Positions 5,676 through 10,724 of a stretch of DNA of 10,724 nucleotides are shown here, in pieces. This DNA comes from Coleofasciculus chthonoplastes F2-STO-03 (GTDB taxonomy: Bacteria; Cyanobacteriota; Cyanobacteriia; Cyanobacteriales; Coleofasciculaceae). Position 1 is the first letter of the stretch. Each line of letters opens with the position of its first letter. The notes beneath the pieces were generated by a model. It saw only the letters and a program-made list of their open reading frames with translations, was not told the DNA's origin and searched no databases. A program made the translations under genes and the position numbers. The stretch is from contig JAVJWO010000074.1 of the NCBI GenBank assembly GCA_040222015.1, positions 1 through 10,724 of the forward strand, given 5' to 3'.

Positions 5676-6041
5676 TCATCTTTCAAAAGGATTTAATAAC
5701 TGTAATTCCTCAATCCATTGAAAGTTATTTACATTCCGGGTGACTAATATAAGATTATGTGTTAGAGCCGTTCCTGCGATAATGGCATCTCCTACCGTCA
5801 TGCGTCTCATTTGGCGTAGTGCTACAGCTTGATTTAAAACAGGCTGCGAAATTGGCAAGACTAACGCTACCGCAAAAAATTCATCCAGAAGTTGGCGCTC
5901 CATCTCCGTCAAACGATGATAGCCCAATGTTTCAACGTAACTGAGTGCAGAAACGGCTGAATCATGGTTGGCAATGAATTCACGTAACCAGGCATATTCA
6001 GGGCGAGTTGCGTAAATGATAATATTGCTATCCAGCAGCAT
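5676..6041 (-). CDS. vapC: VapC-family PIN-domain toxin
   Basis: PIN motifs MLLDSNIIIY, SALSYVE, DAIIAGTAL and LVTRN..NF. GGAGGAG RBS (6054-6048) supports ATG 6041 rather than 6065. Confidence 0.88.
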   Translation of the reverse strand: MLLDSNIIIYATRPEYAWLREFIANHDSAVSALSYVETLGYHRLTEMERQLLDEFFAVALVLPISQPVLNQAVALRQMRRMTVGDAIIAGTALTHNLILVTRNVNNFQWIEELQLLNPFER

Positions 6042-6306
6042 CATTCGCTCCTCCAGGGCGTTCACGATCCTGTCTGATCTGGCGCTGCCATACCAACGGA
6101 TCGATTTCTGAAAATGCCTGTGACTGCGCTAATTTTTCGAGTATTGCTGCCATTTGTTGCCCACGATTATGGGTTATAGTGATCGCCTCTTCGTCTAGAA
6201 AAGTAACCAGAACCTGAACAGTGCGATCGCCCTGAAACCACTGATTGACTTCCTCTTGCCATTCCAGTAAATTTCCTTTCAGGATTGCCCGAAATGTATG
6301 CAGCAT
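6028..6306 (-). CDS. Putative antitoxin paired with VapC
   Basis: 92-aa ORF immediately upstream of vapC and overlapping it by 14 nt. Beta-rich N-terminus (TFRAILKGNLLEW..VQVLVTFL) and C-terminal DPLVWQRQIRQDR. Confidence 0.7.
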   Translation of the reverse strand: MLHTFRAILKGNLLEWQEEVNQWFQGDRTVQVLVTFLDEEAITITHNRGQQMAAILEKLAQSQAFSEIDPLVWQRQIRQDRERPGGANDAAG

Positions 6307-6681: not shown

Positions 6682-8301
6682 ATGACAACCACAAAAGCCT
6701 TGCAATTTATGCGGAGAACCGCAGAAGATGAACAACTACAGCAACGCCTAGGGGAATTGATCGGGGTTGGTGATGGGGATATCAGTAGTCAAATGGAACT
6801 CGATGAAGCAGAAGCCGACGCCTTGACGGGCGATCGCGCCCCCTTGGTGGTGAAGTTAGCATCCCAGCAGGGGTTTGAGTTTTCCGTTGACGATTTAAGA
6901 ACCGTCGTCGATGCCTTTGGGCGGTATCAGTTAGGAGAACTCTCGGAAGCCGAGTTCTCGCAACGGATTGGATTATCCAACTTAGAGCAAAACACACCAG
7001 ACAGTATTCCCTCGATTAAAAAGACATTAGAATTTGTCTATCGGGGGACTCGCTATCAACGAATTAATGGCAAACTCGTTCCTGTTATCCAACCCACTAA
7101 TTCTACGCCCAGTGTTCTGGAATTTATGCACAAGACATCTGAAGATCAGGGCTTACAGCAACAATTAGCGACAGTGTTGGGGGTTGGTGATGGAGATATC
7201 AGTAGTCAAATGGAACTCGATGAAGCCGAAGCCGACGCCTTGACGGGCGATCGCGCTCCATTAGTTGTTCAGTTTGCCGCCCAGCAGGGGTTTAACTTTT
7301 CCGTTGAAGACTTAAGAACAACGGTAGATGCGTTTCAACAGTATCAATCAGGCGAAATATCGGCTAACGATTTCTCAAAGATTATTTGTGTATCGAACCT
7401 AGATCAGGGAACAAAAGAAAGTATCTCCTCGATTAACAAAACCTTAGACTATGTCTATCGAGGGACTCGTTATAAACGCATTAATGGTAAGCTAGTCCCC
7501 GTACACGAATCGGTGAATTCTACACCCAATGTCCTGCAATTTATGCAGAAAACGGCTGATGATCCCGAAGTTAAACAAAAATTAGAAGCATTATTGGGAG
7601 TCGGTGACGGCGATATTAGTAGCCATGCCGAATTGGATCAGCAAGAAGCCGCTGCGTTAATCGGCGATCGCGCCCCGTTAGTGGTGAAATTTGCGGCTCA
7701 ACATGGGTTTGACTTTTCCGTTGAACAACTCACCACAGTTGTTGATGGCTTTGTGCGATATAAATCCAATGAACTATCCGATCAAGAGTTAGCTAAAATT
7801 CTGGGATTGTCTGATCAAAAGACACCAGCAAGTTTACCCTCAATTAAACAAACTCTAGAGTTTGTCTATCGCGGAACTCGTTACCAAAAAATTAATGGAC
7901 AATTGGTTCCCGTGGAAAAACCAGCAACGACTGTTCCCAAAGTGTTACAGTTTATGCAGAAAACCGCCGAAGATAAACAACTCCAACAACAACTGGGAAC
8001 ATTACTCGGTGTGGGCGATGGAGACATTAGTAGTTATTCAGAACTCGACACCGCAGAAGCACAAGCCCTCACGAATAACGCCCCGGTGGTGGTAGAGTTT
8101 GCTGCCAAACAGGGTTTTGAGTTTTCCAAAGAGGATTTAATTCGGGTTGTTGATGCCTTTGCACAGTATCAGTCGGGTGAATTATCTGAGAAGGAGTTCT
8201 CCAAAATTATTGGCTTTTCCAGTCAAGGAACGAAAGAAAGTTTTCCTACCCTCAAAAAGCTCGTCAGTTTTCTATCGGGCGGTGCGGGTTCCCCTAACTA
8301 G
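6682..8301 (+). CDS. Tandem-repeat protein with four Nif11-leader-like units, function unknown
   Basis: 539-aa open frame. Each unit reads LQFM.KT.ED..LQQ.L...[GVGDGDISS..ELD..EA.AL]...VV.FAA.QGF.FS.EDL......ELS..E(F/L). The first three units continue with (F/Y)VYRGTRY..ING.LVPV. Confidence 0.8.
   Translation: MTTTKALQFMRRTAEDEQLQQRLGELIGVGDGDISSQMELDEAEADALTGDRAPLVVKLASQQGFEFSVDDLRTVVDAFGRYQLGELSEAEFSQRIGLSNLEQNTPDSIPSIKKTLEFVYRGTRYQRINGKLVPVIQPTNSTPSVLEFMHKTSEDQGLQQQLATVLGVGDGDISSQMELDEAEADALTGDRAPLVVQFAAQQGFNFSVEDLRTTVDAFQQYQSGEISANDFSKIICVSNLDQGTKESISSINKTLDYVYRGTRYKRINGKLVPVHESVNSTPNVLQFMQKTADDPEVKQKLEALLGVGDGDISSHAELDQQEAAALIGDRAPLVVKFAAQHGFDFSVEQLTTVVDGFVRYKSNELSDQELAKILGLSDQKTPASLPSIKQTLEFVYRGTRYQKINGQLVPVEKPATTVPKVLQFMQKTAEDKQLQQQLGTLLGVGDGDISSYSELDTAEAQALTNNAPVVVEFAAKQGFEFSKEDLIRVVDAFAQYQSGELSEKEFSKIIGFSSQGTKESFPTLKKLVSFLSGGAGSPN
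6697..8298 (+). repeat. Intragenic tandem repeat, 4 units (spacing 417, 417, 411 nt; last unit shortened)
   Basis: Homologous FM Met codons at 6709, 7126, 7543 and 7954. Confidence 0.9.
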
Positions 8302-8881: not shown

Positions 8882-10564
8882 TCACAAATTCAAATCCGTC
8901 ACCGCACCCATACTGCTAGAAGACACTAATTTGGCATACTTCGCCAGCACTCCTTTGGTATATCGGGGTTTGGGAGGTTGCCACTTGGCGCGGCGTTGTT
9001 GCAGTTCCTGATCAGATATATTGATCTGTAATAATCGCGCCGGAGCATCAATCGTAATCGAATCCCCTTCTTCGACTAACGCGATCGCACCTCCAACGGC
9101 AGCTTCTGGGGCAACATGACCGACTACCATACCATAAGTCCCCCCAGAAAAGCGACCATCGGTAATTAATCCCACCGAATCCCCTAACCCCGCACCAATA
9201 ATCGCTGACGTGGGCGCTAACATTTCCCGCATTCCTGGACCTCCTTTGGGTCCTTCATACCGCACCACAATCACATCTCCCGCCTGAATCTTACCCGCCA
9301 AAATTGCATCCAAACAATCTTCCTCGGATTCAAACACACGCGCAGGACCGTTGATTTGGGGCGTTTTCACCCCCGTAATCTTTGCCACCGCGCCTTCGGT
9401 TGCCAAATTTCCTTTTAAAATCGACAGGTGTCCTTGGCTATACATGGGATTATCCCAGGGACGAATTACATCTTGATCCGGGGGCGGTTCATCGGGTACA
9501 TCAGCTAATACTTCCGCTACGGTTTTCCCGGTAATCGTTAATGCTTCACCCTGTAATAAATCATGGACTAGCAGCATTTTCATCACTTGGGGAATACCGC
9601 CAACCTGGTGTAAATTCGTGGTCACATATCTGCCACTGGGTTTAAGATCACACAGAACCGGAACTCTAGCGCGAATCGTTTCAAAGTCATCCAGAGTTAA
9701 ATTTACCCCGATCGCACGGGCAATTGCCAGTAAATGCAGTACCGCATTCGTTGATCCACCCACTGCCATAATTACCGAAATGGCATTTTCAAAAGCTTGG
9801 CGAGTTAAAATCTGTTGGGGTAGAATTTGCTGACGAATCGCATCAACCAGAACAAACGCCGATTTTTCCGTACTGTCCGCTTTTTCGGCATCTTCGGCTG
9901 CCATTGTTGAGGAATAGGGTAAACTCATTCCCATGGCTTCAAATGCCGAGGACATGGTGTTGGCGGTGAACATTCCGCCACAAGAACCTGCACCGGGACA
10001 AGCGTTTCGTTCGACGGCTACCAGTTGTTCTTCAGTAATCTTACCCGCACTATGTTGTCCCACCGCTTCAAAGGCGCTGACAACGGTTAAATCTTGTCCA
10101 TCCAGATGTCCGGGTTTAATGGTTCCCCCATAAACAAAGATGGCAGGAATATTCAGCCGCGCGATCGCAATCATCGCTCCAGGCATATTCTTATCACAGC
10201 CACCAATTGCCAGCACCCCATCCATACTTTGACCATTACAGACGGTTTCAATGGAGTCAGCAATCACTTCCCGTGACACCAGGGAATATTTCATCCCCTC
10301 GGTTCCCATAGAGATACCATCGCTAATGGTAATCGTACCAAAGACTTGCGGCATTGCCCCCGCTTGTTTTAATCCGGCTTCTGCCCGCAGCGCCAACTCA
10401 TTGATGCCCATATTACAGGGCGTGATTGTACTATACCCATTCGCTAACCCAACGATTGGCTTAGTAAAATCGCGATCGCTAAAACCGACAGCACGAAGCA
10501 TGGCACGATTTGGCGATCGCTGCACACCTTGGGTAACGACTTGACTTCTCAGGTTATCTGACAT
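8882..10564 (-). CDS. ilvD: Dihydroxy-acid dehydratase
   Basis: Motifs [71 protein letters not shown] and [16 protein letters not shown] near 10575-10579. Confidence 0.97.
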
Positions 10565-10602
10565 TGGCTTAATTTCCTTTGTTAATAAACTACCCAGACC
10601 TG

Positions 10603-10722
10603 CTAAGAGCTGAGGTCTGGGTTTTTAGTAGCCCTGAAGTCATTGAACAAGCTAAGACTTCGGCGTGAGCGCTCAGTCGAACGCTGAACATACTCGATAG
10701 TTCGGCTTAGCTTGCACGATAA
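10603..10722 (-). CDS. tnpB: Probable C-terminal tail of TnpB (partial; 5' part outside the window)
   Basis: Open frame from the window edge: [13 protein letters not shown][RSTERSRRS][17 protein letters not shown]. The stop falls within the right-end hairpin loop, as is usual for tnpB. No RuvC or zinc-finger motifs are visible in the window. Confidence 0.55.
10657..10683. repeat. 27-nt palindromic small dispersed repeat, apparently inserted in-frame in tnpB
   Basis: ACTTCGGCGTGAGCGCTCAGTCGAACG: central palindrome TGAGCGCTCA flanked by TTCGGC/GTCGAA. Removing it restores ...VQLSLF... Confidence 0.55.
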
Positions 10723-10724
10723 CC

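Follow-up and report, generated by a model that had tools for sequence, protein, structure and literature searches.

The window, 10,724 nt in length, is an entire contig (C74) of the genome under study (G000; 7.7 Mb in 219 contigs), and its last position is thus an assembly break, which lies inside a mobile element. Phycobiliprotein and photosystem-like proteins encoded in flanking regions of element copies point to a cyanobacterium as the host. Next to the element, a full-length ilvD gene is encoded on the minus strand (Table 1); a profile search of the genome with PF00920 gave one match, so ilvD is single-copy. Exactly 20 nt (10584-10565) separate its ATG at 10564 from the end of the element, where a hairpin (10621-10593) is followed by GGGTAGTTTAT, terminating at 10585 on the same strand. 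A preceding sequence-only reading had placed the end of a TnpB element about 20 nt before ilvD, and this placement is borne out by a tnpB tail of 39 residues and by 23 right ends in the genome. A lack of tnpB homology upstream, together with a lack of further copies of the end, had been named as evidence against it; the tail was found by translation and the end proved to be multi-copy. Elsewhere in the window, a 539-aa protein (6682-8301, plus strand) consists of four repeats of about 140 aa, which presumably resemble Nif11-type leader-peptide domains. A PIN-domain-like reading frame (5676-6306, minus strand) preceded by a small overlapping one is, as judged by eye, likely a toxin-antitoxin pair.

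Table 1. Features of the ilvD locus and of the adjacent element end (positions of the window).
Feature	Position	Strand	Basis or remark
ilvD, dihydroxy-acid dehydratase, 560 aa, full-length	8882..10564	-	TIGR00110 821.6 bits (cut-off 618); PF00920 and PF24877
Host-derived remnant of the ilvD leader, 20 nt	10565..10584	-	2 substitutions compared with element-free G001, G002, G004 and G007
Predicted guide, 16 nt; proximal 12 nt (10584-10573) contain AAGGA	10584-10569	-	lengths by analogy with ISDra2 (excerpts of PMC8612924 and PMC10278001)
Shine-Dalgarno-like AAGGA, 10 nt 5' of the ATG, within predicted guide seed	10575..10579	-	sequence; function putative
Terminal motif TTAT, with the element ending at 10585	10585..10588	-	the 23 copies cease to be identical after TTTAT; in empty sites, the junction maps to the base that follows CCAC
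GUUUAU, predicted 3' strand of the reRNA pseudoknot	10585..10590	-	partner AUAAAC about 22 nt past the window edge
Subterminal hairpin of the right end (10621-10593), flanked at the 5' foot by AAAA (10625-10622) and predicted to be recognised by TnpA	10593..10625	-	fold z -3.49; 3 of 9 pairs with two-sided changes
tnpB 3' end (final 39 codons plus TAG stop), which overlaps the reRNA scaffold	10603..10722	-	translation; where aligned, 93% identical to a complete member of 404 aa
Stem 2, the long stem of the predicted reRNA scaffold	10638..10724	-	fold z -4.93; 4 of 18 pairs with two-sided changes
Insertion of a 27-nt dispersed repeat into the stem region, adding 9 residues to tnpB without a frame shift	10657..10683	-	carried by 4 of the 15 copies in the alignment; limits uncertain to within 3 nt

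Complete family members were used for further classification of the element. Eight complete copies in relatives measure 1358-1402 nt (family size 1.36-1.40 kb) and contain a reading frame of 395-406 aa and no tnpA; a complete copy on contig C66 of G000 encodes 419 aa. The proteins match PF07282 and PF01385 (RuvC and zinc-finger) and reach 170.8 bits with NF040570 (guided_TnpB; cut-off 100), and their best solved relatives are Cas12f-type proteins (8j3r, E 1e-20). The RuvC triad D177/E267/D354 is kept in all six of the other family copies aligned. In the ilvD copy, about 1.0 kb of the middle, including the catalytic region, falls outside the assembly between contigs C61 and C74; the two ends that are assembled show 97-100% identity to the active family. 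Four of the 23 copies in G000 (on C40, C47, C91 and C168) are deleted or truncated. Y1 TnpA is represented by 17 PF01797 matches in G000, several of them near ends of a sister family and none tied to the ends of this family. Among 151 genomes of the order, the right-end pattern was matched in G000, in two same-genus genomes and by one sister-type end elsewhere, and a tblastn search of plasmids yielded distant TnpBs only (best 49%). By the features tested, the sequence adjacent to ilvD is classified as a tnpB-only member of the IS200/IS605 group (IS1341 group).

The 23 right ends in G000, all detected at E<2e-4, are followed after TTTAT by a different flank in each case, and most are located at contig breaks. 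The right-end hairpin also folds as DNA (z -3.5). At the left end, a 9-pair stem appears in both the MFE and the centroid structure, with a z of just -1.59 for the whole region. Where the family under study has TTAT and AAAA, the sister family pairs TCAT with GAAA, which corresponds to the IS608 pairing rule between end motif and hairpin foot. The general principle behind this type of rule is treated in bioRxiv 2023.03.14.532601 (available excerpt).

The left ends share a common sequence from CCAC onward. This tetranucleotide was compared with 13 empty sites, defined as flanks from relatives that align to G000 from their first bases: it is present at the junction exactly in nine, with one mismatch in three and one base off in one. 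Since CCAC is found at empty-site junctions, it is host DNA and no target duplication occurs; the element is inserted 3' of CCAC and has no terminal inverted repeats. The insertion point at ilvD is in register with the empty sites of two relatives (G003 and G004). From a further run (X1), one of three flanks gives CCAC at the empty site, the motifs of the other two not being found in G000. In 16 of 23 flanks in G000 the element is directly followed by T (background 25%), a preference that is weaker in relatives (12/28). At one locus (L156, G000:C117 near 15957), the site is empty in G000 and occupied in X1; 7 nt downstream of the insertion point behind CCAC there is an in-frame ATG, which may be the true gene start. 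Four left ends (on C124, C52, C164 and C50 of G000) lie inside the called 3' end of a gene on the same strand, whose frame now stops inside the element.

A comparison of ilvD upstream regions in relatives had been proposed as a way to find the empty site, and it did so: the element is absent before ilvD in all eight same-genus genomes examined (three with short upstream contigs), and in G001, G002, G004 and G007 the leader differs by two substitutions. In six of the eight, short tandem repeats are followed by the near-identical 20 nt before ilvD, and five relatives carry a divergent pentapeptide-repeat gene upstream. Contig C61 of G000 bears this pentapeptide-repeat gene and the intergenic block, followed by matching repeats, CCAC and the left end of the element. 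An 82-nt native block, located 150-280 nt before ilvD in five relatives, is intact on C61 and is now about 1.5 kb away from ilvD, past the left end. The statement that there is no room for a native promoter therefore holds for the 20-nt leader; the native region itself persists at a distance. As judged from these alignments, the ribosome-binding region of ilvD is host DNA outside the element; AAGGA is retained in G001-G005, G007 and G008.

One contig of run X1 spans the junction (9900-10612) at single-copy depth. It shows five differences to the window within ilvD, all synonymous and clustered in 100 nt, which could be a recombination patch. This contig fits a fixed insertion with a working ilvD; X1 possibly underlies the assembly itself or comes from a close relative, so that it is maybe not independent, and contigs drop rare variants. 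We also want to note that a second, unrelated tnpB element (L061, G000:C61:29832-31211; frame of 417 aa, apparent target CTTAA, end TTCAC) occupies the same divergent promoter region. It points into the pentapeptide gene and ends 8-41 nt before its possible starts, so each gene of the divergent pair now has an outward-pointing tnpB element in its leader. In relative G005, the upstream region of ilvD (L032) is unlike that of the other same-genus genomes and the copy of the native block is found on another contig.

The last 165 nt of the element fold as RNA at z -4.9, and none of 200 shuffles folded as well. A scaffold model comprising stem 1, the long stem, the end hairpin and a pseudoknot was evaluated on an alignment of 15 copies: 97.5% of 590 cells are paired and seven pairs show two-sided changes, a result that was reached in 0 of 500 shuffles, a count that is not to be read as a probability because the alignment rows are related and the structure was drawn from the same sequences. 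The pseudoknot partner is located at -134 to -163 in nine of ten family copies inspected. The pseudoknot is paired in 13 of 13 rows and invariant within the family, with no two-sided change; its sole covariation is provided by the distant copies on C45 and C195, which pair GTAAAC with GTTTAC. The 27-nt repeat in the stem region has eight perfect matches of 30-33 nt outside the element. We take it to recall the short dispersed repeats of cyanobacteria; among the literature matches listed, nothing relevant to it was found.

In ISDra2, the guide is formed by about 16 nt of flanking sequence (PMC8612924, available excerpt). Transferred to the ilvD copy, the predicted guide would correspond to the ilvD leader and cover its Shine-Dalgarno-like AAGGA, as the sequence-only reading had proposed. 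No CCAC-adjacent genomic target was found for this guide; the best prefix comprises 8 nt, with four mismatches in 16. This applies to the family as a whole: none of the 23 guides has a CCAC-adjacent match of at least 12 nt, compared with 19% of 2500 sampled intergenic CCAC sites (p=0.007). Judged by these matches, the lack of self-targets fits selection against self-cutting by an active nuclease, and it could partly come from poor assembly in repeats.

Looking for the origin of ilvD transcription, we detected TGG, a -10-like hexamer and a further 6 nt directly in front of the tnpB ATG in all 20 distinct copies with an assembled start, including the left end on C61. The sequence around this extended -10 motif differs among the 20 copies, and about 135-145 nt lie between left end and ATG in complete members. 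Scans gave no promoter or terminator consensus at 10400-10724 of the window, no promoter consensus in the native block and no full -35/-10 sigma-70 site at the left end. A complete copy likewise has no promoter consensus and no terminator on the sense strand, and shows two antisense terminator-like matches at chance level. The right-end hairpin is followed by a U-rich run that fails the terminator rule of the scan; hairpin and run might attenuate read-through. Predicted accessibility of the leader is 0.66 (mean unpaired) for the occupied and 0.70 for the empty site. Contigs from RNA runs, which stem from relatives without the insertion, were rejected as evidence since they show no start or end. 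A 103-nt 'skip' at a left end was considered as splicing and rejected; it fits another subfamily.

Because the element separates ilvD from its native upstream DNA, ilvD is likely read through from the predicted promoter of the element, and the proposal that the gene is transcribed from within or across it gains support from the displacement of the native block to C61, past the left end. Taken together, the locus is the right end of a multi-copy IS1341-group element, inserted after CCAC between the native upstream region and the host ribosome-binding site, and ilvD is probably read through from the predicted extended -10 promoter with no dedicated coupling. The element would have been moved by a Y1 TnpA acting in trans. 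A leaderless tnpB-ilvD transcript would start at the extended -10 motif, and the displaced native promoter possibly tops up ilvD transcription. Trimming by TnpB would be confined to the 5' side of the scaffold, upstream of the window, and would not touch the ilvD part; host RNases would generate the end of the 16-nt guide, which likely is what remains, protected, after decay. The ilvD site is likely tolerated since the orientation of the element lets transcription continue into the gene. TnpB likely retains the element by cutting chromosome copies after excision, and retention through cutting of empty sites is a published model (excerpts of PMC8612924 and bioRxiv 2023.03.14.532601).

The position in a leader is not restricted to ilvD. 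Based on gene starts from our own gene calling on G000 (5906 genes, 78% coding), 7 of 23 right ends have a co-oriented start within 45 nt, with gaps of 18, 18, 19, 20, 27, 40 and 41 nt and with smc and mdh among the genes; for three of these seven starts, a family match that covers the protein from its N terminus lends support. The background at intergenic CCAC sites is about 6%, which gives p=0.0004. Of 16 left ends, none has a divergent start within 45 nt (Fisher p=0.03 against right ends). Other tnpB families in G000 pass the same co-oriented 45-nt test with 11 of 47 ends (56 of 75 domain matches examined, 47 of them with an approximate end). In relatives the enrichment was not replicated, with 2 of 28 ends equalling the background. 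These 28 exclude one duplicate site, one site shared with G000, six unparsed end motifs, one unfetched match and eight sister-type ends. Several ends in G000 and in relatives are found at gene 3' ends or inside genes. A family-wide targeting of 5' leaders was rejected on account of the count in relatives. We read the leader positions as survival at tolerated sites after recurring insertion and not as a dedicated switch. For smc, two independent insertions of the family are present at different positions, 27 nt from the start in G000 (C40:166217) and 4 nt from it in G003 (L096).

Apart from read-through from the element, ilvD might mainly be driven by the displaced native promoter across 1.4 kb, or a cryptic promoter might be located towards the 3' end of the element; in both cases ilvD expression would depend little on the tnpB transcript. 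The intact native block would allow for this, and for IS1341-type elements of Halobacterium a separate origin of the 3' overlapping RNAs was left undecided (PMC4615843, available excerpt). However, neither the element part of the window nor the native block contains a promoter consensus, the motif of the element is kept in 20 of 20 copies and lies closer to ilvD, and the second tnpB element is inserted just upstream of the native block; we regard this origin as unlikely. Less probable still is a domesticated ilvD copy, which would act either as a TldR-like repressor with a dead nuclease or as an IStron, removed from the ilvD mRNA by splicing. Both variants had been kept in play by the sequence-only reading, and the triad of the ilvD copy indeed belongs to the part outside the assembly. 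However, the assembled ends resemble the active family, and the triad is intact in the complete copies and in 6 of 6 aligned. The guide, with a best prefix of 8 nt, lacks the CCAC-adjacent target that a repressor would call for. As to splicing, no intron signal emerged: searches of the window end and of three element loci (L061-L063) gave no Rfam match save one chance match, no contig of the runs examined joined the two sides of the element, complete members with their short stretch before the ATG offer too little space for such an intron, and the element ends in T and not in G, as the terminal-G rule for introns would have it. Simple decay of the ilvD copy may also have occurred.

A further alternative is a real coupling, a modified form of the original idea that guide maturation cuts at the ilvD initiation region and thereby couples element and gene. 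TnpB on the shared transcript would hold the seed, which is the ilvD Shine-Dalgarno sequence, or host RNases would cut beside the bound protein, so that the TnpB level throttles IlvD synthesis. AAGGA indeed lies within the proximal 12 nt of the predicted guide, and four of the seven co-oriented gaps measure 18-20 nt, approximately one guide length. According to the available part of PMC10278001, 3'-extended RNA is a working TnpB substrate in vitro (AmaTnpB cleaves DNA with 59 nt of 3' padding) and host RNases may assist at the reRNA 3' end. The same excerpt reports that AmaTnpB processes 5' but not 3' sequence, which speaks against the proposed cut at the initiation region. The cut made by TnpB itself would thus be located upstream of the window, with ilvD still joined to the scaffold, whereas a cut on the 3' side would depend on host RNases and might accompany the usual decay of the RNA. 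Furthermore, about 23 loci compete for the same TnpB, the insertion is missing before ilvD in the other same-genus genomes examined, the leader is predicted to be similarly accessible with and without the element, and the gaps in relatives do not cluster at guide length. Nor would a coupling be specific for ilvD, as had been supposed, since the same geometry is found before smc, mdh and other genes. We therefore consider it improbable; if it exists, occlusion of the Shine-Dalgarno sequence by bound TnpB would be its more plausible form. Similarly doubtful is the more general version, in which elements persist in leaders because the host gene comes under the control of their leaderless promoter, the seed coincides with the host Shine-Dalgarno sequence, TnpB loading throttles ilvD, smc and mdh, and homing locks the element in place.

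As it stands, the ilvD insertion is an ordinary IS1341-group insertion. Our results define a cyanobacterial TnpB family for which CCAC, a C-rich motif, is predicted. Furthermore, the locus is a naturally occurring case in which the formation of TnpB guide 3' ends can be studied where the downstream RNA is a needed mRNA, a point left open in the available part of PMC10278001. If it were true that TnpB loading lowers downstream translation, many TnpB elements residing in leaders would be hidden post-transcriptional regulators.

IS1341 itself was reportedly first described as promoting the expression of a downstream alanine-carrier gene. With the elements of this group, the family shares a tnpB gene alone that overlaps a structured 3' RNA, hairpin ends and a tetranucleotide target without duplication, but it differs in the C-rich CCAC target combined with a TTAT end and in the predicted leaderless tnpB mRNA. 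In the article texts searched, no precedent was found for CCAC as a TnpB TAM. As in ISDra2, the RNA overlaps the tnpB 3' end and the right end, the stem-1 loop pairs with the last six bases, the guide derives from the next approximately 16 nt of flank and the donor joint equals the target (excerpts of PMC8612924 and PMC10097598). In contrast, ISDra2 carries tnpA and targets TTGAT, and its TnpB matches the family protein weakly (E 2e-08).

For IStrons, which are defined by a group I intron with splice sites at the element ends, a TnpB element that sits at an essential gene with no apparent damage to its function has likewise been described (bioRxiv 10.1101/2023.11.20.567912, available excerpt). 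The ilvD element has no group I intron and is inserted in the leader and not in the coding frame, so that splicing is not needed. TldRs, for which the available part of PMC10705468 requires the loss of at least two RuvC catalytic residues, have in common with the family the TnpB fold and a guide related to a regulatory region. The family differs in its intact triad, its mobility and multiple copies, a guide that is different at each of 23 sites and the lack of a TAM-adjacent target. Finally, insertion sequences in promoter regions that supply the transcription of the next gene are a described class (PMC9208149, available excerpt), to which the ilvD case is similar, except that transcription would come from the element's own tnpB promoter, 1.26 kb upstream, and not from an outward promoter at its end.
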